Shown here: piece by piece, positions 38,212 to 50,644 of the stretch
How positions within the stretch are numbered: position 1 is the stretch's first letter
How the letters are laid out: every line of letters begins with the position of its first letter
Assembly: GCA_963651445.1 (NCBI GenBank)
Contig: CAVJPU010000007.1
Span: 33 to 64,032 of the forward strand
Direction: 5' to 3'
Source of the DNA: a bacterium
Lineage (GTDB): Bacteria > Bacillota_I > Bacilli_A > RFN20 > CAG-826
DNA length: 64,000 nt
Program-made: the position numbers and the translations under genes
Notes under the pieces: generated by a model
The model's database searches: none
The model's input: the letters and a program-made list of their open reading frames with translations, nothing else
Told to the model about the DNA's origin: nothing

Positions 38212-38850
38212 TTATTGCTCGTTATAGTCAGGCAATGAATATTCCTTCTCTTTTGTTTTCTTTAAAATTTTTGCGACTGGCTTGGTGTGTCTGGAAACGG
38301 CAAGCACCCTCTGGTAGGTGACAAGAGATGGTTTGTATTGGTTCTCAAGTTCCTTAAGCCTAGCGTTTTTTTCGTTGACCAATGGATCGACTTCGGCGCG
38401 TTTAGCGGCGTTGCTATTGCGGACATCGATATCGATTTTTTCTCTGATTTGGGTGGCGCCAGCGGTGTCCTCATCTTGTCTAGCGACTTTGAGGGCAGCA
38501 TTGGCCTGCTTCTTATAATCCTTAATCTCTTTAGAATACTTAGTATTTATATCTTTGATCTTCTTATCATATTCCGCGGAGATTTCTTTTCTCTGCTTGT
38601 TGTAATCGGCGACGGTGCCTTTTTTCATATCCCTTTTGGCGTTTTCGTTCTTCTCGATGGCGGAGTCAATGACCGTATCGGCGTCGCTTCCGACGATGGT
38701 GTATAAGAAAGAGACGCCCTTTTTGAGATTGATGGTGTAAATGATAAAGACCACCAAGGTAACGATGAGAGCGACGCCTAAGACGACGGCGATGATGGCG
38801 CCGACATCGACTTTGGATGAAGATTCAGAACTGGATAACAAATTGAACAT
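38212..38850 (-). CDS. membrane-anchored Lys-rich coiled-coil protein, unknown function
   Basis: One TM helix (IIAVVLGVALIVTLVVFIIY) followed by a K/E/D-rich helical region. Confidence 0.6.
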   Translation of the reverse strand: MFNLLSSSESSSKVDVGAIIAVVLGVALIVTLVVFIIYTINLKKGVSFLYTIVGSDADTVIDSAIEKNENAKRDMKKGTVADYNKQRKEISAEYDKKIKDINTKYSKEIKDYKKQANAALKVARQDEDTAGATQIREKIDIDVRNSNAAKRAEVDPLVNEKNARLKELENQYKPSLVTYQRVLAVSRHTKPVAKILKKTKEKEYSLPDYNEQ

Positions 38851-38884
38851 ACTTATGCCTCCGCGGCTTGATTATAGCCCCTAA

Positions 38885-38931
38885 AGAAAGAAAAGCCACC
38901 TAGAAGAAATTATATTTCTTACCAAGTGGCT
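38885..38931 (-). terminator. terminator closing the partner-switching cluster
   Basis: Long hairpin agccacctagaagaaat-tat-atttcttaccaagtggct, followed by a T-rich tract on the minus strand. Confidence 0.6.
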
Positions 38932-38940
38932 GCTTTTGGA

Positions 38941-39240
38941 TTAATTTATGGAAATAAGCTCGCTTAAGCCCGTCATTTTTAAGACTTCCATGACGACTCC
39001 ACCGACATTTGTCAAAGAGAAGCTTCCACCGTTCTTGGACATAGTCTTATAGCCAATCAAGAACAAGCGTAATCCCGAGGAGGAAACATATTCCAAGTCC
39101 TTCAAATCAAGCTCAAGGTCGCTTGTTTCTAAAAAGGCTTCTTGCATCGCCTTATCCAATTCAGGCGAAGTGACGGTGTCTAGTCTTCCTTTCAAAGAAA
39201 GGGTCAACTTGCCGTTATCGATATTCTTAACGATTTCCAT
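38941..39240 (-). CDS. STAS-domain anti-sigma-factor-antagonist-like protein (SpoIIAA/RsbV type)
   Basis: 99 aa. Conserved phospho-site region DLEYVSSSGLRLFL. Confidence 0.85.
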   Translation of the reverse strand: MEIVKNIDNGKLTLSLKGRLDTVTSPELDKAMQEAFLETSDLELDLKDLEYVSSSGLRLFLIGYKTMSKNGGSFSLTNVGGVVMEVLKMTGLSELISIN

Positions 39241-39249
39241 TATGTCTCC

Positions 39250-40431
39250 TTAGAGAATGAGATCATCCACTTCATCGATAGCCTTGTTGAGGTTACGGAA
39301 GTAGCCCTCTTCTTGCTTCTTAAATTTCTCTTCGACATCCAAGCCATGAGTAATCATATGCTGGAACAAACGGAGGTTGCTTAAGACCTGGACTTTCTTG
39401 GTAATCTCCTCGATGCGTTTCTCATCGTGGGTATCGAAATAATATTCGAGGGTTTTAAACCAAACGTGCTGTCCTTGTTCGTAGGTAAGACCGAGGAAAT
39501 CATGGATGTTCTCGCGATCGAATTCAGAAAAACCTAGATAGGCATCATATATGCTGGCGAACTCAAAGATTGGATCTCCGTGACAAAGGGTATCCATATC
39601 AATCAAAAGGACTTCCCCATTTTGCATCATGATGTTCTTGAAGTGGAGGTCGCCATGAAGCATATGATCGCTTTCGGGAATGGCTTCATACATCTTGGCT
39701 AACTTGTTATATCTATCTTCGGTCAGAAACTTTTTAATGAAATCAATCTTCTTTCTAAATACGGACTTTTGGTTAGCCATCTCTTCCGGTTTGACTTGGG
39801 CGTGATGGATTTTCTTCATTAAATCAACGCTTAGCTTGATGTATTTATCGATGTTGTCCGGATCGCGGATAACGAGTTTGGCAAAGGAATCGGCGTTGAG
39901 CATCTCAAAAACGGAGCCAAAGCTATCGCCGACTTTGACGATATCGAACGGGATGGCGGTCGGAATGCCTAAAACGAAGGCTCTTCTGGCCATTTTGATT
40001 TCTCTTTCGATATCCGATAGGGAATTGGAGTCGAAATAGACTTTGACGATGGTGTCAGGCGCGGTTCTATAGACTTTGCCGGTCGCACCTTGTCCGATTA
40101 ATTCAGCACCTTCCACCGAAATCTGACGATAAGCCTTTTGGACATTCATCAATTCGGTGAAGCCAGTCATCTCGAAGATGTCATAAACTTCGCTGGAGGC
40201 ATTGATGATTTTCATGCCAGGCTCAAGCTTTAAAACACGAAGGATGGCGCGTAAACCGGCGCTGGAAGTGTAAAGCAGCTTTTCGGCATCAATCACCAAA
40301 TCATTATGAGGATTGCTGGTGCGGATTTTCTCTAATTCAGCATCAAATTCAGCCGCGTTGCTGGAATCGATTCTCCCATCGACTGAAATGGTGAGGACGC
40401 CGTTTTCCAATTTGTAACTTAGATTTTCCAT
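39250..40431 (-). CDS. fusion protein: N-terminal STAS domain + C-terminal protein-kinase-like/aminoglycoside-phosphotransferase-fold (APH) domain
   Basis: Residues 1-~100 are STAS (LLYTSSAGLRAIL). The rest shows Gly-rich loop GQGATGKVYR, a VKV lysine region, catalytic loop HGDLHFKNIMM and metal-binding LIDMDTL. Confidence 0.78.
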   Translation of the reverse strand: MENLSYKLENGVLTISVDGRIDSSNAAEFDAELEKIRTSNPHNDLVIDAEKLLYTSSAGLRAILRVLKLEPGMKIINASSEVYDIFEMTGFTELMNVQKAYRQISVEGAELIGQGATGKVYRTAPDTIVKVYFDSNSLSDIEREIKMARRAFVLGIPTAIPFDIVKVGDSFGSVFEMLNADSFAKLVIRDPDNIDKYIKLSVDLMKKIHHAQVKPEEMANQKSVFRKKIDFIKKFLTEDRYNKLAKMYEAIPESDHMLHGDLHFKNIMMQNGEVLLIDMDTLCHGDPIFEFASIYDAYLGFSEFDRENIHDFLGLTYEQGQHVWFKTLEYYFDTHDEKRIEEITKKVQVLSNLRLFQHMITHGLDVEEKFKKQEEGYFRNLNKAIDEVDDLIL

Positions 40432-40433
40432 CG

Positions 40434-43253
40434 CTATTCTCCTTCCTTTTTAAGGAACTTGGTCAAAGTCAGAATATTCTCTGAGTTCTCGTATTTGTAT
40501 TTCATATCGTCCATCGTGTTCTTGACGATATAGATGCCAACCCCGCCGACTTTCCTATCTTCTAAGGAAACATCGAGGTTTGGATCGGCGTTGTGCAATG
40601 GGTTATAAGGAATGCCTTTATCGATGAATTTGAGATAGATGGCATTCTTTTCTTCGCGGTATTCCACCGACATCGTAAGTGGCCCGCCTTTGCCTTCATA
40701 GCCATGGTTGATGATATTGGAGACGATTTCGTCCAGAGCGACATCCAACTGATAAGTCGTCTTCTTCGGACAAGACACATTCGATAGCTCGTTGTTAAGG
40801 AATTCGGTCATTTGTTCGATATCCTCTAGCTTAGCTTCATCGAAATGGATGTTTGGGATTGGGATGACTCCCTTATATTGGAAGGCTAACATTGTGATGT
40901 CGTCGGCTTGTTTGGCGCCCGATGCGAATTCATCAATGTCTTTTTGGACCTTTAAGCAGAGATCTTTCATATCTAGGACCTCCATGTTGTTCAGCAAATT
41001 GAGCAAACGTTCTTCTCCGTATAAGGCGAGTTCATTGTTCACAGCCTCGGTTATACCGTCGGTATAAAGGAAGATGATGTCGCCTGGTTCTAACTGCAAT
41101 TGGTTTGAATGATACTTGAATCCATCCATTCCGCCTAAAATGAAGCCGGCTTTGGACTTAAGGTATTCGAATTTGCCAGTGGAGGCTTTTTTGATAAGGG
41201 GAGGATTATGACCACCGTTAACGAAGGTCAATACACCGGTTTCTAAATCGATATTGCCTTGCCAGGCCGTGACGAACATTCCGGCGTCGTTTCTATCACA
41301 TAAAGCCTTATTCGCCGAAGTGAATACTTCATCTAACGGATAATCGGCTTCGGTCATGGTTCTTAAATCCGCTTTGGCGCGCATCATGAACATAGCGGCT
41401 GGGATACCCTTGCCCGAAACATCGGCAATCATGATGTTAAATTTCTCCTCATTTCCGTAAAAATCATAGAAATCCCCACCAACTTCTTTGGCGGTTTTCA
41501 TGCTCGCATAAATATCGAATTCTTGTCGCTTGCTCACTTTTTCGGTGATAACCGGCAAGGAAGAGAATTGGATTTGTTTGGCGAATTCCAATTCGTCGTC
41601 AATTCTTTGATTGGCTTCAGCAATTAACTTCTTCATCGAATCGACGGTCCTGTTGATATCGTTGGAAAGGTAAGACATTTCCTGGGAACCTCTGACATCC
41701 ACCGCTAAAGAAAGATCTCCATTGGAGATAGCGTACAAGGTCTTATTGACATATTTGAGTTGCTTAACGACCGTTCTTTCGATTAAGGCATAGACCAAAG
41801 CAAAGATAACGGCGAAGACAATGACTTCCATGAAGGTGCTTAAATACAAAGACACATTGCGGTCCGCCAAAGCTTCTTCAACCGGAAGCAAGGAAACGAT
41901 GTAATATCCTTCGGATATAGCATAACTACAATAATATTTAGTCCCTTTGACACTGACTTCGAAAGCCTCGGAAATCGTAAAGGAATCTTTGCTACTTTGA
42001 AGCGGCCCGTCTTTCGTGAAGGAATCCGGCCCGGAAACTATTTGCTTATTCTGATCAAGGACAAGGACGCAGCCTTCTTTGCCGACATGGCGGTTCTTGG
42101 TTACGTCAGTGACTTGCTCGGCGATATCTTTTTGAAGACGTTCTCCGTCATATCCAACCTGAACGAATCCATCATCATAGGTAACGCCGGCGAACTTACG
42201 ATAAATCTCCTCATTGGAGCCAATCGGGCCGTAAGCCTGGACATAGGTTGTGGTTTTGCCGTCCAAAAGGCAAAGGAATTCTTCCGATTGATCGGAATTA
42301 TGCATATCCCAACCGATTAAGGACAAATCAGTGCTCTTAATAATGATGCCTTTGCTATTGACGACATGGATATCGGTGACATCACGTCTATCGGCAATAA
42401 GGTCGATGTCGTAGCCTGCGGTTAAATCGGAAGCAACGTCTTGGCAGATGGATAAGATATTCGCGTCGGACTTATCTTTGATGTCCGCTTCGGTATCGGA
42501 AATGGCTAAACTCAACGATTCTTTGGCCTCGCTTTTGGCTAATGAGGTTTGGAAGCTATAAACGAAGACGCCAGAGGCGATAAAACCGACAACGACCGTC
42601 AAAAGAAGCCATTGCTGAACGATTTTCGAGGTCTTGGTGTCCCTTACCTTGGTGAAAATCTTCTCCTTGTTAAGCAAGGTCATGACCAAGGTCGTAACCG
42701 CAAGAGACAAGCCGTTGCTTAAAATCATCGGGAGCGTAGCGGCCCTAACCACTTCCATGGCCTGAGCTTGAGCGCTGAAGTTGGTGAAGAAGATCATCGC
42801 CATATGGAAGACTTCCATAACCACCGCGGCGCAGAAAGCAAAGAAGATGCCAGGACGGCGTTCTTCGAGCATGAATCTACGGATTAACCAGGCGTAGGCA
42901 CCGGCTAAGACGGTAGAGACGCTGCAAGCGATTCGAGTAAAGGAAGAAACGCCCCAATAGACGCTGAAGAAACGTTCGACCCCACCGATAACACCGGCGA
43001 TCATGCCAGCCGGACCGCCAAACATAAGGCCAGCGGTCAAAACAGCCGCGTCACGGCAATTTATCTGGGCCCCAGAGATTGGGATGCCACATTCGGTGCC
43101 AAGAATAGCCAATCCGCCAAAGGCGAGGCCATAGATAATCTGTTTGATGAAGTATTTGAAATTTTTGAATTTGGTGTATTTATCAAGCAAAAAGAAAACG
43201 ACGCTGAGGACAACCGGAGATAGAGCTACTAAGGATAAATAGAAATACTGCAT
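40434..43253 (-). CDS. multidomain sensor: LytS-type 5TM receptor - Cache-like extracytoplasmic domain - HAMP - PP2C (SpoIIE/RsbU) phosphatase - HATPase_c (RsbW/SpoIIAB-like) serine kinase
   Basis: 5TMR_LYT-like INCRDAAVLTAGLMFGGPAGMIAGVIGG. ~270-aa loop between TM helices. PP2C motifs GGDFYDF, ADVSGKG, LYTDGITEA, DDITML. C-terminal kinase motifs LDEIVSNIINHGY, IDKGIPYNP, GGVGIYIV. Start taken at ATG 43253; the track TTG is at 43280. Confidence 0.85.
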   Translation of the reverse strand: MQYFYLSLVALSPVVLSVVFFLLDKYTKFKNFKYFIKQIIYGLAFGGLAILGTECGIPISGAQINCRDAAVLTAGLMFGGPAGMIAGVIGGVERFFSVYWGVSSFTRIACSVSTVLAGAYAWLIRRFMLEERRPGIFFAFCAAVVMEVFHMAMIFFTNFSAQAQAMEVVRAATLPMILSNGLSLAVTTLVMTLLNKEKIFTKVRDTKTSKIVQQWLLLTVVVGFIASGVFVYSFQTSLAKSEAKESLSLAISDTEADIKDKSDANILSICQDVASDLTAGYDIDLIADRRDVTDIHVVNSKGIIIKSTDLSLIGWDMHNSDQSEEFLCLLDGKTTTYVQAYGPIGSNEEIYRKFAGVTYDDGFVQVGYDGERLQKDIAEQVTDVTKNRHVGKEGCVLVLDQNKQIVSGPDSFTKDGPLQSSKDSFTISEAFEVSVKGTKYYCSYAISEGYYIVSLLPVEEALADRNVSLYLSTFMEVIVFAVIFALVYALIERTVVKQLKYVNKTLYAISNGDLSLAVDVRGSQEMSYLSNDINRTVDSMKKLIAEANQRIDDELEFAKQIQFSSLPVITEKVSKRQEFDIYASMKTAKEVGGDFYDFYGNEEKFNIMIADVSGKGIPAAMFMMRAKADLRTMTEADYPLDEVFTSANKALCDRNDAGMFVTAWQGNIDLETGVLTFVNGGHNPPLIKKASTGKFEYLKSKAGFILGGMDGFKYHSNQLQLEPGDIIFLYTDGITEAVNNELALYGEERLLNLLNNMEVLDMKDLCLKVQKDIDEFASGAKQADDITMLAFQYKGVIPIPNIHFDEAKLEDIEQMTEFLNNELSNVSCPKKTTYQLDVALDEIVSNIINHGYEGKGGPLTMSVEYREEKNAIYLKFIDKGIPYNPLHNADPNLDVSLEDRKVGGVGIYIVKNTMDDMKYKYENSENILTLTKFLKKEGE

Positions 43254-43330
43254 CGTTTGTATCGATATTTTGCAACGCAAAAATATCCGTCAAGATTTTA
43301 GCATTGAAGATAATTGATTAAAAGAATGGG

Positions 43331-43846
43331 CTAAATACTGGCTTGGGTGGAAGGAGTGCCGTAGACCTTGTCATAGACAATGACAATCTTCAAGGTGTCG
43401 CCTTTGCCGCTTCCGCCATCCTGCGGGGAAACGGAAATGGAAACGACCATCGGATCTTCGCGATCGGTGATCTTTTTGATAAGGAACGCACCTTGTCTGG
43501 CAGCCTGTTCGCCAGAAGAGAAAGTGATATAGTTTTCGTATTCCTTAGCAAGGGTGTAAACGAAACTTCTATTGGTGGCATTCTCTGGAAGAATGTCGGT
43601 GACGAAAATATAAGGCATATAGCAATCTTCGCCATCGGTGACTTCCTTATCCGGATCGTATTCGATGACGCATTGATGGATGCCACTATCCGTAGTCCAA
43701 TAACGGCTGTTATCGCTCGGCTTGATGGTAAGGCTGGTGATATAAACGACTGGGACGATGCCTTGTGGGCGGGTGCCGAAGACCGTGACGAAAACGATGG
43801 CCAAAAGACATATCGCGCTAACTAAGACGGCTACACCTTTTTTCAT
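43331..43846 (-). CDS. small membrane-anchored extracytoplasmic protein, unknown function
   Basis: Start ATG 43846 after GGAGG (MKKGVAVLVSAICLLAIVFV). ATGA overlap with the upstream permease gene. The track ORF is over-extended to 43972. Confidence 0.6.
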   Translation of the reverse strand: MKKGVAVLVSAICLLAIVFVTVFGTRPQGIVPVVYITSLTIKPSDNSRYWTTDSGIHQCVIEYDPDKEVTDGEDCYMPYIFVTDILPENATNRSFVYTLAKEYENYITFSSGEQAARQGAFLIKKITDREDPMVVSISVSPQDGGSGKGDTLKIVIVYDKVYGTPSTQASI

Positions 43847-45582
43847 AAGACCTCCCCCGTTTTGTAAATATATCTGACTTTGCGAACATAAAGAACGATG
43901 TTGAGAGCTAAATAGATAATTCCTAAGATGAGTACCTTGAATCCGGCGGTTGCTTGCAAGGATGAGAACCATACGATATGGTCCTGGAAGTAGTAATAAT
44001 ACAAGACCGCGAACAGGGCCGAAGTGATAAAAGCCATGATTACCGAGCGGTTTTCGTTCCTAGCTAAGAAGGAACCTCCGCCAAACGTGGAACTTGGATT
44101 GGTGAAGTCAAGACCGGCGCTGTATAGCAAATGACCAACATAGACAAAGACCATAGCCACGCCCATGAAGATCGTTCCTTCAAGCATTTCCGGGCGGATA
44201 TAGCCCAAGGCGATGGTGCAGGCCACTAAGCTCAAGCATCCAAAGATGCCAGGGATGATAAGTTTGCTTCCAACCGCGTAATGTTCTTTCAACGGATATG
44301 TTCTCGCCAATTTGAAGGCGCCGCCCTCTTCAGAATAGATGCGAGCGATGACCGAATTGGTGCTTAAGCCGATAAGCAAGGCGATCAATAAGCTGACGAC
44401 CTGAACCAAGGCATCACCGCGGCTATTCAAGTCCATCGCGGTGAAGATTTTGGCCAATAAGCCAATCAACAGCGGCAAAGCCAAGAAAGTTCCGATGTAT
44501 GAGGAAGAAATGCTGGAATCTTTGAAGAACAAGATGGCATCTTTCTTAATCTGCGAAATGAACGGAGGCAAAGGTTTATTTTCTTTCTCTTTGGCGTTCT
44601 TTCTGCCTTTGGCCTGGAGCTCTCCCGTTCCGCTGGCTAGCTTCAAATACAACGGGCTGGCCAAAGCCAAGGAAGCCACGAACAAGACGACGATAAGCCC
44701 GATTACGGCTAATAAAGTCCATAAGCCAGCGATAGCCGAACGAGACATGTAATAGAAACTGAATCCGGTGAAATTCCCCAAGTAAACCATGGAGACCTGA
44801 TAGAAGAAGCCGAGGTTGTTCTTGTAGTAATTCAAACCATTCTGGATCTTGGCGAAGTACGTGCCCCAGTTCGAGAAAATATCGATGTTATCCGGGACAA
44901 GGGCGATGACAGTGATGCATAAAGCCAAGATGATGGCCACCATGATGGACTTAACGATGATGCTGGCCCAAGTGTGGGTACGGATGCCTTTTTTAAGGTA
45001 ATAAACAGGGATACTTATGACCGAGGCCAATAACAACATTACCAAGTCGACCAAGGCCCAGATGACGAACAAGATGAAATACATATAGATTGGGTATTTG
45101 CTAACGGCGAAATAGCCAATCAAGAATGGGATTTCCAATAACAATGAGCGGCGATATGAGCTGATATAACGAACAGCCAATCTAGATAAGAACAAGGTGT
45201 TCCCATTGGTTGGTAAGGTAAGCAAGACTTTGTTGTCTTCGCCGAAATACAATTCCTCGGTTACCTTCGATAGAGAAGCAATGAACGAGATGATCAAAAG
45301 GATGGTCACCACGATGGATGGAACGCTCATTGGGACGAAGGCTAACAAGGAGAAGATACTGAAACGGATGCAAAAATAGAAGAAGACGTAAGATAAGGCG
45401 GCGACCACCGCGAAAGCCACCAAGCTCAGAACGATCTTGATGATGGCTTTTTTCTTATCTTTCTTCCAGTTGATGGACATGGAGTTGGAGAAAAGCATTT
45501 TCACCAACACCCAAAAGGCACGCCAATCAACCGCGAAAAAGCGTCGGAAAGCAGATGCTTTTTTATTTTCTAGCCTCTTCAC
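43843..45582 (-). CDS. polytopic membrane protein, putative ABC exporter permease (ABC_export-like)
   Basis: 579 aa with about 12 hydrophobic helices. Translationally coupled (4-nt overlap) to the preceding ABC ATPase-containing ORF. Confidence 0.7.
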   Translation of the reverse strand: MKRLENKKASAFRRFFAVDWRAFWVLVKMLFSNSMSINWKKDKKKAIIKIVLSLVAFAVVAALSYVFFYFCIRFSIFSLLAFVPMSVPSIVVTILLIISFIASLSKVTEELYFGEDNKVLLTLPTNGNTLFLSRLAVRYISSYRRSLLLEIPFLIGYFAVSKYPIYMYFILFVIWALVDLVMLLLASVISIPVYYLKKGIRTHTWASIIVKSIMVAIILALCITVIALVPDNIDIFSNWGTYFAKIQNGLNYYKNNLGFFYQVSMVYLGNFTGFSFYYMSRSAIAGLWTLLAVIGLIVVLFVASLALASPLYLKLASGTGELQAKGRKNAKEKENKPLPPFISQIKKDAILFFKDSSISSSYIGTFLALPLLIGLLAKIFTAMDLNSRGDALVQVVSLLIALLIGLSTNSVIARIYSEEGGAFKLARTYPLKEHYAVGSKLIIPGIFGCLSLVACTIALGYIRPEMLEGTIFMGVAMVFVYVGHLLYSAGLDFTNPSSTFGGGSFLARNENRSVIMAFITSALFAVLYYYYFQDHIVWFSSLQATAGFKVLILGIIYLALNIVLYVRKVRYIYKTGEVL

Positions 45583-48044
45583 GCGATTCCTTTCTCCTTC
45601 TTTTCTTCTTCGATCAAGGTGTTGGATTCTTCCTCGCTATCGCTGGTCAAACGGAGGAAGGTCTCTTCGAGATTCTCTCTTTCTTCTGGCTCAGCGTCCA
45701 AATCGATGCGTCTGATGAGGTCGCCTTTCTTGATGATGACGACTTCATCGCAGAGGTTTTTGACGACGTCAATGATGTGAGAGGAGAAGAAGACGATGTT
45801 GCCTTCTTTGGCATGCTCTCTCATGCATTCCTTGATTTGGTAGATGGAATTTGGGTCCAAACCGGTCATAGGTTCGTCCAAAATCCAAATCTTTGGCTTA
45901 TGGATAAGAGCGGCGATGATGGTAATTTTTTGCTTCATGCCATGACTATAAGACTTCATTGGCTTATCGTAACGATCACTCAATTCCAAACGAGTGACGA
46001 GGTTTTTCTCGATTTCTTCTTTCTGTTCCTTGGAGACATGATAAAGGTCGGCAATGTAGCTGATGTATTGTCTGCCGGTAAGATTTTCGTATAAGGCGTA
46101 GTTATCAGGGACGAAGCCGATTTCTTTTTTGGCTTCCAATGGTTCTTCGATGACGTTATGTCCGCAGACATCGATTTCACCACCTTCGAAACCATGGATA
46201 CCGACAATGGACTTGATGATGGTGGACTTACCCGCACCGTTCTTGCCAAGGAAGCCGTAGATCTTCCCGCCCTCTAAATCCAGAGAGAAATCTTTGACGG
46301 TAAAGAAATCGTTCCCGTGGTAACGCTTGGAAAGATGAGAGATGGTTAATTCGATCTTATCGCTCATGATTTTTCCTCCTTGGTGAATGGCTAAGTAAGC
46401 CTGATGACGGCTGATGGATTTTTCTTTGGCTAGACGGATGGCCGCTAATTCGTCGACCACTCTAAATAACAATTCGTATAAGAACCACATTCCGAAGGCC
46501 AAGACGACGTAAACGAGGTAATAAGATATGTCATAGGCCAAATGCAATACGTAGGTATATCCGTTGCTTTCCCAAGTAATCGTGGTCTTGAACAAGTTCT
46601 TGGCCCATTCGCCTAACTTATCGGCGACGAACGAGGAATTGATGAAGAAGAAGTCGCTGGAAATGCCATGGGCGGTAAGAATGGTGTTGACCGCCATAAC
46701 GAAGGCGAAATACACGAAGAACCCTATTTGGGAATAGAGGAAGTAACGCATCTTCGGTCGCTTATAAACGCCGCACATGACGATCAGAACCGGCATGAAG
46801 AAAGCATTTAAATGGTTGATGAAGAAAGCCACGATCTTCGGATCGAAAACATATAAAGATTCCGAGAAATTCGGCATCAATAAGGCTAAGAAAGCGCCTA
46901 ATACATTAACGAAGAAGGTGAAGTAATAAAGACCATAGCTAGCGAATAACAGAGTTATTGGCATGGTATACATGGCGGTGTTGCAAAGGTGCAACGGCCA
47001 AGATGATAAGTCCGTCCAGATATCATAACGGTGTATGGAGGCATAACCAATCAAAGTGCCTAAAGATATCTGAAGTAAGACGCCTCTTCTTTCCTCTTTG
47101 CTCATCGGATATAGCAAAGCGAAATACAAAATCGGCAAGATAAAGGCCAAATAGAGATAGATACGATGGGATAAGTTCTTCGGTCCCTTCGGATTGGTTA
47201 AGGTGTAGCCACCTAAATCAAGAGTCCTTCCAAAAAGAAGGGATGGGGAATAAGCGGTCGCCATCGTAAGCAACATCGGAATCAAAACGGCGATGATCTT
47301 CCTAATTTCTTTCTTGTTCAGTTTGAACTTTCCTTCCTCGAAAAGGCTATGGAAGTAATAGAAATCGATGATAGCCAATTCCAAGCCCATAAGGATGGAA
47401 CGATAGGAAACCGCATCGGTTCCTACTATTCCTTTAAGGACGATTGGAAAGGCTAGGGTAATTAAGATAGAGCCTGGCACGCCGATATAACGACGGACGC
47501 TTAAAGAGGATTCTTCCAAGTAGAAGGCGCTGACCAAAGTCAATACGACCAACGCAGTCCATAAATCAGAAGCCAAGGTGCCGATAACCGACTCGTATTT
47601 GGCTAGCATCAATGGGTCCAAACGAAGCATCAATAACTGGCTTTCGAGATGGAAGATGTCGTAATAAGTGAAAGAACCCGTTCCGCCATAGGCATCGACA
47701 TAGTCATAAGTGCCTCGGAAGAAATAGAAACGGGCGAAGAATAAGATTCCAACGATAATGGAAAGAGAGCAAAGAAGGTATTTGTAACGACCTTCCTTGG
47801 TCGCCAATCTGGCGCTCATTTTGGTAAGCCATTTGGATTTCTTAAAGGACTTCGCTTTATGGTCTTTGAGGTAGCGTTTAAGCAAGATAAAGCCACCAAT
47901 CAAGACCAATAAGAGCAAAATGAACGGCAGGAAATTAAGAGCGTAGTTGCTCTTGTTAATGAAAGATAAGCCAAATGAGAGGCCTATAACGACGAAAAGG
48001 CCCACAAAAAGGCAAATGTTCTTTTTTAGGGCCTTACTCGTCAT
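45579..48044 (-). CDS. fusion ORF: ~559-aa polytopic membrane domain (TIGR02206/YwaF/TMEM164-like segment with WPLHLC motif) + C-terminal ABC ATPase
   Basis: One continuous 821-aa ORF. ATPase part: GKNGAGKST, YSHGMKQK, IWILDEP. An internal AAGGAGG-N7-ATG (ATG 46367) sits exactly at the domain border. Confidence 0.78.
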   Translation of the reverse strand: MTSKALKKNICLFVGLFVVIGLSFGLSFINKSNYALNFLPFILLLLVLIGGFILLKRYLKDHKAKSFKKSKWLTKMSARLATKEGRYKYLLCSLSIIVGILFFARFYFFRGTYDYVDAYGGTGSFTYYDIFHLESQLLMLRLDPLMLAKYESVIGTLASDLWTALVVLTLVSAFYLEESSLSVRRYIGVPGSILITLAFPIVLKGIVGTDAVSYRSILMGLELAIIDFYYFHSLFEEGKFKLNKKEIRKIIAVLIPMLLTMATAYSPSLLFGRTLDLGGYTLTNPKGPKNLSHRIYLYLAFILPILYFALLYPMSKEERRGVLLQISLGTLIGYASIHRYDIWTDLSSWPLHLCNTAMYTMPITLLFASYGLYYFTFFVNVLGAFLALLMPNFSESLYVFDPKIVAFFINHLNAFFMPVLIVMCGVYKRPKMRYFLYSQIGFFVYFAFVMAVNTILTAHGISSDFFFINSSFVADKLGEWAKNLFKTTITWESNGYTYVLHLAYDISYYLVYVVLAFGMWFLYELLFRVVDELAAIRLAKEKSISRHQAYLAIHQGGKIMSDKIELTISHLSKRYHGNDFFTVKDFSLDLEGGKIYGFLGKNGAGKSTIIKSIVGIHGFEGGEIDVCGHNVIEEPLEAKKEIGFVPDNYALYENLTGRQYISYIADLYHVSKEQKEEIEKNLVTRLELSDRYDKPMKSYSHGMKQKITIIAALIHKPKIWILDEPMTGLDPNSIYQIKECMREHAKEGNIVFFSSHIIDVVKNLCDEVVIIKKGDLIRRIDLDAEPEERENLEETFLRLTSDSEEESNTLIEEEKKEKGIA

Positions 48045-48050
48045 AAATTA

Positions 48051-50480
48051 TTAAATAGCGTGATAGTCGCCTAAGATAACGCCGTAGTTGCTAGGACCGT
48101 TATAGGCGGTTGGGGTGGTTAACTGAGAAGCGGAGTAAACGTTGGTTCCGTTGATGGTAGCGGCCAAGAATCCGGCGCTCTTCATGATTTCACCTGGCTG
48201 ATAGCTGCTTGGAACGGTGACAGGAATGCTTAAGGCAGCCATGCCAGCTTTGATGGCGTAGTCGCTAGAGCAAAGGTAGTATTGCTGGGTGCTCTGATCG
48301 ACATTAACGATGCCAAATTCGTGTTTGCCTTCGCTATTGGTAGCGGCAAAGACCAGTTCGTTTTCGATGTTGGCATAGGCTAAGTTGTTGCCATAGAAGC
48401 TGCCGGATACGGCTTCGGCATAGGCATTGTAGGCGGTAGACAATTCTGCAGCCGAGGCAGCAGCCTGAGTGGCAGTCGCGAGAGCGGCGTAAGCGGTCAT
48501 AACCTCTTGGTAGCCATCGAGGTTGCTATAGATGATGTTGTTGCCTTTCTTGACGGTGACGTTGGTGCAACCTTCATCCAAAGACGGGAGCTGCAAGGCC
48601 TCATCTCCAGAAACAGGAAGGTTGACCAAGATAAGATTGAATTTCTTAACATCGTTCTTGGTTCTTAAAAAGGACATGCCGTAAGGGGTGAAAAGCCCGT
48701 CCATGGATTGCAAATTGCTGGCCATGGCGCTGGCGCTATAAGCGTCGAACCAACCACCCTTACCAGCGGTGAAGTTGGAAAGGAAGGTGTTTTCATCGAT
48801 ATTGACTTCAGTGGAGAAGGTCGGGGTGAAGCTTAAAGCGGAAACAACATCATCCGGCAACGGTTCAACCAGAGGATTGGTGAAAATCAATGGTCCACCG
48901 GCCTTGGTAATGTCGGAGTTCTTGATATCGCCTCTGGACTGGCCGAAGAAATAGAGGGCGGCGTTAGCAGAGTCGTTGAAACGGCAAGAGTCGATGTCAA
49001 GCTTCGGGCTGGTGTATTTGCCATCGATATACCTGCCGATTTTCTTAACGCCTCCTTCGGTGTAGGAAAAAGGGCCATCGGCCATGGCGGCCATATAGAA
49101 GCTGTTGACCAAGACGTTGTCGAGTTTGGCGTCGACGGCGGTTTTTAAGAACATCGGTCCCGCTCTTCTGGTGGTGGTAGAAGTGTCATCGACACCATTG
49201 TTTCCGGAAGCCTGGAGATCTTTAAAGATAATCTGGCAATCGAACGGATTCTGGTTGGCGCCGTAATAGCCATAAAACAAGGAAGCGTGGCAAGAGATTG
49301 GCTCGGATTCGCTCTGAGCGTGGCCTTGATCGTTCTCAGTCAAGACGTACGGGAACATATTCTCGTCATCTTCGTTGGTGTTGAAGGAAATCGTATGGAG
49401 GTTGCCATAAACAGTGGCGGTTTCGGCAGCGTCATCGAATTGATGGATGAAAATACGGACGGAATCCTTAAGGCTGCCTACGACACTTGCGTCACAGCCT
49501 TCGCTTTCCTGCCAGATGAAGACGGATGGGATATCGTTCTTGCCGATGGAGATATCGTTCTGAATAACGATGTTATCGGCATCTGGCAAGTTAAGTTCTT
49601 GTTTGAATTCATATACCGGGGTGAAGAAAGAGGCATCATCGGTATTGTTGTTGTAGAAAGCGAACAAATCGGTCGCTTTGCTGACGTTATACGCGTCGAC
49701 GACTTCGACGTTATAAACGATGTCTTTCTGGCCCGAATAGCTGAGGGTGATGGTGAAGGAACCAGTGACGTCGTCCTTGAACTTCAATTGGCCATCTTTA
49801 AGGAAAGAAGAGGCATTTTCGATATAGGAATCAACGACGAGGTCCATGCCTTCGGAGGCTAATTTCATCGTGGCGCCAGTTGGAATGGTGGTAAGCTCGG
49901 TAACCTCATAGGTTTCTTTGTTGAGACCATTCAATTCCGGAAGCAAATTGATGACGTTCATATTGCCGACATAGAAGGTAGCGGACTTCATGAAACCTTT
50001 TTCCAAGTTATCTTCATCAGAAGAAATCTTGTTGTTGACCTGATATCCGGTCGTGTAGGTGTAATTCGGGTTAGCGGCCCAAGAGGAAAGGGTATAGGCA
50101 TCGACGACGTTGTAATTCAAGGTGTCGGTGAATTCCTTGTTGCCATCGTTATAGGTGACGGTAAAGACTTTTCCGGTCGCTAACTCGGAAGTATCAATCT
50201 CGGTGTAGGTGATGCTGTCCTTGTTCTCAATCCATTTGAGGGTCTTCATCTTGTTGTTGTTCTCATCGAAAAGATCAATCGCCAAATTGTTGTAGTTTGG
50301 GGTGGATTTCTGAGAGAAGCTGGTCTTGATGGAACCAGAAACGATTTTAATCGAAGTCAATGTTGGCTGGACGCTGGAAGAATCATCGCTGCTAGAGCTA
50401 TTGTCTGGTCCGCAAGAGGCCAAGCAGGTAGAGGCGATGGCGCCTAGTGCCAATATGGTAATTTTGGTCAGTTTTTTCAT
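48051..50480 (-). CDS. large surface lipoprotein, unknown function
   Basis: Start ATG 50480 after GAGGAG (MKKLTKITILALGAIASTCLASCGP), lipobox LASC, Ser-rich linker, then ~780 aa that look beta-rich. Confidence 0.75.
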   Translation of the reverse strand: MKKLTKITILALGAIASTCLASCGPDNSSSSDDSSSVQPTLTSIKIVSGSIKTSFSQKSTPNYNNLAIDLFDENNNKMKTLKWIENKDSITYTEIDTSELATGKVFTVTYNDGNKEFTDTLNYNVVDAYTLSSWAANPNYTYTTGYQVNNKISSDEDNLEKGFMKSATFYVGNMNVINLLPELNGLNKETYEVTELTTIPTGATMKLASEGMDLVVDSYIENASSFLKDGQLKFKDDVTGSFTITLSYSGQKDIVYNVEVVDAYNVSKATDLFAFYNNNTDDASFFTPVYEFKQELNLPDADNIVIQNDISIGKNDIPSVFIWQESEGCDASVVGSLKDSVRIFIHQFDDAAETATVYGNLHTISFNTNEDDENMFPYVLTENDQGHAQSESEPISCHASLFYGYYGANQNPFDCQIIFKDLQASGNNGVDDTSTTTRRAGPMFLKTAVDAKLDNVLVNSFYMAAMADGPFSYTEGGVKKIGRYIDGKYTSPKLDIDSCRFNDSANAALYFFGQSRGDIKNSDITKAGGPLIFTNPLVEPLPDDVVSALSFTPTFSTEVNIDENTFLSNFTAGKGGWFDAYSASAMASNLQSMDGLFTPYGMSFLRTKNDVKKFNLILVNLPVSGDEALQLPSLDEGCTNVTVKKGNNIIYSNLDGYQEVMTAYAALATATQAAASAAELSTAYNAYAEAVSGSFYGNNLAYANIENELVFAATNSEGKHEFGIVNVDQSTQQYYLCSSDYAIKAGMAALSIPVTVPSSYQPGEIMKSAGFLAATINGTNVYSASQLTTPTAYNGPSNYGVILGDYHAI

Positions 50481-50644
50481 AAAAGTACTCCTCGTCTCCA
50501 AAAATTGGAGGATACCCAATCAAATATGTTACCACATTAAGCGTTTAATAAACCCTATATTTTCTCTTTAGGAGAAATAGTGAATGACAATTCTCTTAAA
50601 AAGCGTCGACAAACACATTGTTTAGGCTTTTCTCTATGAAAAGG

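Follow-up and report, generated by a model that had tools for sequence, protein, structure and literature searches.

A three-gene cluster on the minus strand of a 64,000-nucleotide stretch of bacterial DNA (the window; positions 33–64,032 of contig CAVJPU010000007.1, GenBank assembly GCA_963651445.1, GTDB lineage CAG-826) encodes a membrane sensor that carries both a PP2C-type serine phosphatase domain and an RsbW-type serine kinase domain, a STAS domain fused to an APH-fold kinase (STAS-APH), and a small, single-domain STAS protein. Partner switching is taught as a mechanism of sigma-factor control. The reading that we favor, to which we assign an overall probability of roughly 0.6, is that the three genes (window positions 43253–38941) form one operon and encode a sigma-independent, partner-switch-like phospho-switch that has the STAS-fused kinase as its output.

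The three genes lie head to tail and nearly abut, with gaps of 2 nt between the sensor and STAS-APH genes and 9 nt between the STAS-APH and small STAS genes, which confirmed the description of three adjacent, co-oriented genes in an earlier note on this DNA. Open reading frame (ORF) calling placed the sensor gene at 40434–43253 (939 amino acids from an ATG at 43253), the STAS-APH gene at 39250–40431 (393 amino acids) and the small STAS gene at 38941–39240 (99 amino acids), and the public gene calls for the same contig and for close relatives also gave proteins of 939, 393 and 99 amino acids. An alternative sensor start at a TTG (43280), which would yield a protein of 948 amino acids, was rejected because both the N termini of homologs and the public gene calls match the ATG at 43253. 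A GGAG motif lies 8 nt ahead of the ATG of the small STAS gene. The strong terminator that the note had placed at the end of the cluster is likewise present: directly 3′ of the small STAS gene, an intrinsic terminator (38882–38931, minus strand) consists of a hairpin (38931–38894) with a 17-bp stem followed by a U-rich tail, and RNA folding gave the hairpin –21.5 kcal/mol and z = –3.1 relative to shuffled sequences. A consensus terminator scan missed this hairpin because the scan permits only small loops. The two short gaps and the terminator after the third gene are what would be expected of a single transcription unit.

From its N terminus, the sensor comprises a 5TM-5TMR_LYT receptor module, a transmembrane (TM) segment, an extracytoplasmic loop of predicted dCache fold, another TM segment, a HAMP-like linker, the PP2C domain and a HATPase_c_2 domain, an architecture common to at least 120 full-length homologs of 49–94% identity. 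In a Pfam scan numbered on the 948-amino-acid version of the protein, the three domains that had been proposed at the two ends of the sensor all exceeded the curated cut-offs: the membrane receptor module (amino acids 34–191, positions 42681–43154; PF07694, E = 1.3e-24, 87.1 bits against a cut-off of 24.6), the PP2C/SpoIIE serine phosphatase domain (amino acids 602–793, positions 40875–41450; Pfam SpoIIE, 1.5e-50, 172 bits) and the HATPase_c_2 (RsbW/SpoIIAB-type) serine kinase domain (amino acids 807–932, positions 40458–40835; 3.3e-20, 72.8 bits).

The note had also called a Cache-like loop and a HAMP domain between these ends, of which the loop stood up better. The HAMP-like linker (amino acids 491–540, positions 41634–41783) reached only 17.1 bits against the Pfam cut-off of 25; the same stretch was also aligned by NCBIfam histidine-kinase and methyl-accepting chemotaxis protein models, and HAMP is called in some sensor homologs in precomputed Pfam annotation. 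The loop (amino acids 236–472, positions 41838–42548) scored 15.9 bits with Pfam dCache_1, under the cut-off of 45, but we kept the Cache assignment because an AlphaFold2 (AF2) model of the loop, built on 30 homologs (pLDDT 88.9, pTM 0.83), matches dCache structures. Its best PDB matches in Foldseek were the dCache ligand-binding domains of Tlp3 (9e-9), Mlp24, Mlp37, PctA and DctB, and it also matched the periplasmic domain of Chlamydia RsbU (6mab); these matches had E values of ~1e-8 and TM-scores of only ~0.4. As modeled, the loop has a dCache fold, in which double PAS-like modules are carried on a long N-terminal helix between the two TM segments.

Both of the opposing activities that the note had assigned to this one sensor look functional, because the catalytic residues of both domains are invariant in an alignment of 30 full-length homologs: the PP2C metal ligands D594, D597, D611, D732, D784 and D785, and the HATPase N-box (E842/N846), G1 (D878-x-G880) and G2 (G903-G904-x-G906) motifs. 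The NCBIfam RsbW and SpoIIAB models match the HATPase domain under cut-off, and the best NCBIfam match of the sensor as a whole is SiaA (7.7e-22, far under cut-off). Among solved structures, Rv1364c of Mycobacterium tuberculosis (PDB 3ke6, 5e-16) is the best match to the cytoplasmic part. Pfam found no REC domain in the sensor.

The second protein joins an N-terminal STAS domain (amino acids 9–99, positions 40135–40407; Pfam STAS, 5.8e-10) to an APH-fold, eukaryotic-like kinase domain that extends from amino acid 110 to the C terminus (positions 39253–40104). Pfam APH (PF01636) matched amino acids 110–306 with E = 1.4e-12 and 48.3 bits against a cut-off of 23.2, and the AF2 model of the whole protein had a pLDDT of 91.6 and a pTM of 0.79. 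The listed residues of the active site, K130, E144, H259-G-D261-x-H263-x-K-N266 and D278-M-D280, are invariant in 80/80 homologs, and a GxGxxG-like loop (G113-x-G115-x-x-G118) is present. From the profile match, the model and the alignment we regard the APH fold and an intact active site as established.

The same evidence bears on what this kinase might phosphorylate. In Foldseek, the best matches of the kinase domain were APH(2''), APH(3'), amicoumacin kinase, choline kinase and methylthioribose (MTR) kinase, at 12–16% identity. The nearest named model was NCBIfam TIGR02172 (6.9e-33, 114 bits against a cut-off of 228), and all named NCBIfam kinases scored under cut-off. The GxGxxG-like loop, K130 and E144 are as in eukaryotic-like protein kinases, and there are weak Pfam matches to RIO1 and TCAD9, which would suit a protein kinase at the head of a cascade to proteins such as the small STAS or an HD_4 hydrolase found in relatives (see below). 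We consider such a cascade decidedly improbable, given that the top matches, by sequence and by fold alike, are without exception kinases of small molecules (APH, hygromycin, choline, MTR and amicoumacin kinases) and that the catalytic loop is of the APH type, HGDxHxxN. It is also extremely unlikely that the sensor controls a kinase for resistance to antibiotics or xenobiotics (aminoglycoside, macrolide or amicoumacin type): the fold does resemble those of APH(2''), APH(3') and AmiN, and NCBIfam resistance models match weakly, but their scores are far under cut-off (27 against 325 for APH(6) and 18 against 550 for Mph(C)), identity to resistance kinases is only 12–16%, and the gene belongs to a conserved chromosomal cassette of hundreds of anaerobic species, whose genetic links are with SpoT-like hydrolases and not with resistance islands.

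The third protein is a STAS domain (Pfam STAS, 2.6e-15) that passes the NCBIfam model for anti-sigma factor antagonists (70 bits against a cut-off of 53.45). That both STAS proteins retain the phosphorylatable serine, as the note had proposed, was borne out by alignments of homologs from related loci. When the STAS-APH family profile was aligned to SpoIIAA, Ser57 (codon 40261–40263) fell on SpoIIAA Ser58, at the start of helix 2, and S56, S57, G59, L60 and R61 are invariant in 80/80 homologs. In the small STAS the S53-S54 motif, which contains the predicted phosphorylation site Ser54 (codon 39079–39081), is invariant in 54/54 homologs. The two families have one motif in common, Y-x-S-S-[AS]-G-L-R (80/80 STAS-APH and 54/54 small STAS), and this identity of the site fits the action of one shared kinase/phosphatase pair on both.

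The phosphatase, the kinase and the STAS serine of an RsbU/RsbW/RsbV-type system are thus all present, as profile searches for PP2C, HATPase_c_2, STAS and APH all supported, and no co-encoded sigma partner was found. Iterated searches seeded with Bacillus subtilis SigF and SigW sequences detected no sigma factor in the 64-kb window and a single extracytoplasmic-function sigma factor (locus L017, 3337–3867), which served as a positive control, among 1033 neighboring genes in 84 homologous loci; the absence of a sigma factor from the cluster agrees with the earlier note, and such factors are essentially absent from homologous loci as well. Eight loci with precomputed Pfam annotation contained no Sigma70 domain, and elsewhere in the 64-kb window there was no further STAS, PP2C, HATPase_c_2/RsbW-like or HD_4 gene. 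The claim that every part of a partner switch is encoded here must be withdrawn, however, because no exchanged partner equivalent to the sigma factor was identified. These observations also bear on a classical anti-sigma module acting in trans, in which the HATPase_c_2 domain would keep a sigma factor from elsewhere in the genome bound until unphosphorylated STAS freed it. The sub-cut-off matches of the HATPase domain to RsbW and SpoIIAB, and the name 'anti-sigma factor antagonist' that NCBI gives to relatives, are in its favor; we nevertheless judge it very improbable because the neighborhoods are so poor in sigma factors and because the kinase is tethered to the membrane and fused to the antagonist phosphatase, and the conserved partners are enzymes and transporters.

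Relatives of STAS-APH are numerous. A search of 5.8 billion proteins returned at least 7971, and they occur in the genomes of at least 584 species (584 were confirmed among the 600 stretches listed, with one genome per species). Among the matches listed, carriers belong to the Oscillospiraceae, Acutalibacteraceae, Lachnospiraceae, Erysipelotrichaceae and Peptococcaceae, and also include some Spirochaetia metagenome-assembled genomes (MAGs); the Lachnospiraceae carriers include the isolates Coprococcus catus and Sporofaciens. In the loci with Pfam annotation the same trio is found between unrelated flanks, and in some of them the sensor input is Cache_3-Cache_2 in place of 5TMR-LYT. That the cassette is conserved in different families, although its flanks are unrelated and its sensor inputs vary, lends further support to the reading of the trio as a phospho-switch with a STAS-fused kinase as its output.

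We surveyed gene content by calling ORFs in the fetched loci and searching them with the domains of the window, and counted the 54 loci that were complete for context (at least 4.5 kb upstream and at least 1.5 kb downstream); because the ORF calls were crude, the counts are approximate. An RsbW-type HATPase_c_2 kinase was present in 42/54 loci, a fused PP2C-HATPase_c_2 protein in 34/54 and a small STAS in 43/54. The exact gene order of the window recurs in four other loci, and the commonest orders were 'STAS / PP2C-HATPase / STAS-APH' (8 loci) and '5TM-PP2C-HATPase / HD_4 / STAS-APH / STAS' (6 loci). STAS-APH is the constant element of the cassette. One contig with the Clostridia-type gene order of the window (CAVBUY010000005.1, our loci L003 and L011), whose STAS-APH is 63% identical, is titled 'Alistipes shahii' and is probably a mis-binned or mislabeled MAG.

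A search of 1.84 billion representatives with the kinase domain alone gave 2590 matches at E ≤ 1e-3, of which 463 were at E ≤ 1e-30. The best 150 of these 2590 comprised 116 proteins with STAS and APH, 21 with APH alone, 3 with HATPase_c_2 and 2 with HD_4. Pfam resolved the long relatives into HATPase_c_2-STAS-APH and STAS-APH-HATPase_c_2 proteins and a protein with HD_4 followed by APH (in which Pfam called no STAS); other long architectures were HD-CE-STAS-APH, STAS-APH-PHP, STAS-APH with a PolyA_pol head, GH3-STAS-APH and Na/H exchanger-STAS-APH. Such multi-domain relatives are rare (P0373, P0383, P0405, P0439, P0461, P0467, P0497, P0502 and P0507); a YezG-like domain is a further partner among them, and the PolyA_pol head is a CCA-type nucleotidyltransferase. 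Judged by these fusions and by its neighbors, STAS-APH appears to be tied functionally to an RsbW-type kinase and to phosphoesterases. The note's suggestion that the kinase fused to one STAS protein may be the output of the switch is therefore supported by comparative evidence, namely that STAS-APH is constant, that the kinase nearly always bears a STAS domain (116 of the best 150) and that fusions to HATPase_c_2 and HD_4 exist.

A frequent companion of STAS-APH in relatives is a gene of ~190 codons that encodes a Pfam HD_4 protein (2.9e-22). It is present in 32/54 context-complete loci (59%), ends within 60 nt of the STAS-APH ORF in 27 of those 32, and is the immediate upstream neighbor of STAS-APH in all 36 loci where the gene set places it; its stop overlaps the STAS-APH start by 11 nt in L005 and by 4 nt in L008. 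The protein aligns with positions 1–122 of the RelA/SpoT model (2e-25), forms a separate, well-conserved stand-alone family and, in L005, contains HDxxED and DxxxN hydrolase motifs when read by eye. That phosphoesterases and nucleotidyltransferases recur as partners hints that the substrate of the kinase is related to nucleotides. Going further, because HD_4 precedes STAS-APH in most relatives and the two are in rare cases fused, one could picture STAS-APH and the SpoT/RelA-like HD_4 protein as an opposing synthase/hydrolase pair for an undescribed phosphorylated messenger of nucleotide type, controlled post-translationally by the partner switch. We offer this only tentatively and think it unlikely; were it true, a new pathway of second-messenger or alarmone-like type would be widespread among Firmicutes of the gut and rumen, and the window would show the form of it that lacks HD_4.

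Related operons contain other proteins in which STAS or RsbW-type domains are joined to enzymes or transporters. In two loci (L048, 4191–5285; L073, 4784–5866) a STAS domain is fused to a Cof-type HAD phosphatase (Hydrolase_3, 8.6e-54); these STAS-HAD proteins carry the serine motif as ISSSGLR, adjoin a small STAS and a PP2C-HATPase sensor, and represent a second STAS-enzyme fusion in the same type of operon. Genes for SDF (sodium:dicarboxylate symporter) proteins lie inside related operons in 11 loci (including L005, 3687–5348; L013, 2011–3612; and L050, 9507–11174). Their N-terminal extension of ~140 amino acids is a degenerate RsbW-like HATPase_c_2 domain (hhalign 92%, E = 5e-7), probably non-catalytic, which makes these symporters candidates for STAS-regulated transporters. 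In five loci (L041, 2718–4475; L045, 2508–4277; L051, 2523–4271; L072, 2142–3896; and L083, 5143–6939), genes for MatE efflux transporters with a C-terminal HATPase_c_2 domain adjoin STAS, PP2C-HATPase and STAS-APH genes. Taken together, the fusions and operon partners argue that this branch couples its STAS and RsbW-type domains to enzymes and transporters, not to transcription.

The transporters raise the question of whether the small STAS is the real output, its unphosphorylated form binding a target elsewhere (like SypA, SiaC or BtrV), in which case STAS-APH would serve as a substrate alongside the small STAS or in competition with it, and the kinase of STAS-APH would not itself be regulated. 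The SDF and MatE transporters with RsbW-like domains in relatives' operons would be natural targets, the small STAS is present in 43/54 loci, and SypA provides a precedent (PMC8256260). Within the window, however, no transporter or other protein except the sensor has an RsbW-like domain, the serine of STAS-APH is just as invariant, and it is STAS-APH that is the constant member of the cassette. We therefore regard output through the small STAS as rather unlikely, while noting that it is compatible with regulation of the STAS-fused kinase.

For that preferred reading, a phospho-switch acting on the STAS-fused kinase, we infer who phosphorylates whom, the direction of regulation, the APH activity as the regulated output and the type of its substrate, as follows. 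The membrane sensor would read an extracytoplasmic ligand through the dCache loop, and possibly a membrane signal through the 5TMR-LYT module. The HAMP-like linker would pass on this input, shifting the balance between the sensor's RsbW-type kinase and its PP2C phosphatase, both of which would act on the conserved serine, Ser57 in STAS-APH and Ser54 in the small STAS. The phosphorylation state of the STAS domain would then gate the fused APH-fold kinase, the enzymatic output, whose substrate is most likely a small molecule. The small STAS would be a second substrate, which may compete for the sensor's kinase domain or signal to another target.

Several observations weigh against this scheme. 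In 4/54 context-complete loci STAS-APH is an orphan, without any other recognized gene of the module nearby, and these four, together with the loci of the order 'HD4 / STAS-APH / STAS', have neither a kinase nor a phosphatase within 8 kb, so that regulation in trans, or a STAS domain that acts without phosphorylation, is possible. No substrate of the kinase could be inferred from the PDB sequence search and Foldseek, which gave only generic APH-fold kinases at 12–16% identity. HD_4, a partner in 59% of relatives, was found neither at this locus nor anywhere else in the 64-kb window, and the scheme leaves the role of the small STAS unexplained. Finally, the full-text literature that we searched yielded precedents only, and no paper or biochemistry on any member of the cassette.

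Those precedents cover each single feature of the system. The closest for a STAS-fused enzyme is Anabaena All4160, in which an N-terminal STAS domain is fused to a glycosyltransferase and phosphorylation negatively regulates function; its state depends on the PP2C phosphatase HenR and on kinases, with Alr3423 as the key kinase in vivo (PMC13555669). The defining feature of All4160, an N-terminal STAS domain with a conserved serine attached directly to a catalytic domain with an intact active site, is present here, and in both cases a PP2C phosphatase and serine kinase activity set the state and no sigma factor is involved (both predicted, for the trio). The trio differs in that its enzyme is an APH-fold kinase, one membrane sensor unites the serine kinase and the phosphatase, a further STAS protein is encoded as a free partner, and all components lie in one operon. 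An RsbW-type kinase and a PP2C phosphatase on one chain, with an output other than a sigma factor, are known from Vibrio fischeri SypE, which acts on the STAS protein SypA (PMC8256260), and fused kinase/phosphatase regulators are known in Campylobacterota (PMC9239204). SypE is cytoplasmic, however, with the order kinase-REC-phosphatase, whereas here the PP2C domain precedes HATPase_c_2 behind a 7-TM/dCache/HAMP-like sensor, and there are two predicted STAS substrates, one of them kinase-fused.

The order PP2C then RsbW-like kinase on one chain is that of Rv1364c. Rv1364c is soluble, with an N-terminal PAS domain and a STAS domain on the same chain, in contrast to the trio, which has a membrane receptor as its input and encodes its STAS domains on separate chains. 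Chlamydia RsbU resembles the sensor as a membrane PP2C protein with a periplasmic dCache-like domain, the one that appeared among the Foldseek matches of the loop. The Chlamydia RsbU/RsbW system also has two STAS substrates, RsbV1 and RsbV2, but there RsbW is a separate protein and, unlike here, neither STAS protein is fused to an enzyme. The SiaABCD system of Pseudomonas, which consists of a membrane HAMP-PP2C protein, a HATPase_c_2 kinase and a STAS-like protein, controls an enzyme and not a sigma factor; SiaC binds this output, a separate diguanylate cyclase, and, unlike here, the kinase and phosphatase are separate proteins. TIGR02172, the model nearest to the kinase domain, describes a Fibrobacter paralogous APH-like family of stand-alone kinases of ~226 amino acids that is itself uncharacterized.

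Since every feature has a precedent, this is not a new kind of system. The earlier note had called the arrangement unusual, which does not hold: it belongs to a large conserved family of Clostridia, SypE and Rv1364c already join kinase and phosphatase domains, All4160 joins STAS to an enzyme, and SiaABCD, among others, switches without a sigma factor. What appears to be undescribed in the literature searched is STAS-APH as the constant, presumably regulated enzyme of a widespread Clostridial cassette, together with its coupling to a SpoT-like hydrolase; the full-text search also returned nothing relevant on 5TMR-LYT. To partner switching the cassette adds a large uncharacterized branch, where this chemistry seems to act directly on enzymes and transporters. 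The branch numbers thousands of proteins, and at least 584 species carry it, most of them Clostridia of the gut and rumen. The cassette offers a defined three-protein system for asking how STAS phosphorylation gates a fused catalytic domain, with cultured carriers in Coprococcus catus and Sporofaciens, and if the HD_4 link holds, dominant anaerobes of the gut would tie membrane sensing of the environment to a metabolism of nucleotide or alarmone type.

The sensor gene is preceded by a 77-nt spacer (43254–43330) that shows 93% conservation with L002 and L009. A possible promoter lies within it (43265–43293, minus strand; TTGACG, 17 nt, AAATAT), as a weaker match than a stricter consensus promoter scan demands, which called nothing upstream of the sensor; the rejected TTG start at 43280 falls within the spacer of this putative promoter. 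Only 11 nt separate the AAATAT element from the ATG, and the 77 nt contain no Shine-Dalgarno sequence, so the operon may have its own promoter and a transcript with no leader or a very short one.

Four genes on the same strand (43331–50519), which overlap or abut one another, come immediately before the sensor gene and encode proteins of 822, 821, 579 and 171 amino acids. The 821-amino-acid protein is, by Pfam, a TMEM164-family membrane domain fused to an ABC ATPase, the other three matched no Pfam family, and synteny of the block is confined to the closest relatives. Just past the terminator (38212–38850, minus strand) lies a gene for a protein of 212 amino acids with a single TM segment at its N terminus and a tail rich in lysine and glutamate, which matched no family and is kept only in the closest relatives. 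We considered the flanking genes as outputs (the 212- and 171-amino-acid proteins, the TMEM164-ABC operon, an S9-like hydrolase and a Na/Ca exchanger) and rejected them as members of the module because, although syntenic in L002, L003 and L009 (and only there), unrelated genes take their place in L005, L007 and L008. A role in anti-phage defense was likewise rejected, since PADLOC gave no match for any of the five proteins submitted to it. Near the cassette in six loci (L036, 1425–2870, and five others), a protein of ~480 amino acids with PTS_IIB and ROK domains recurs.

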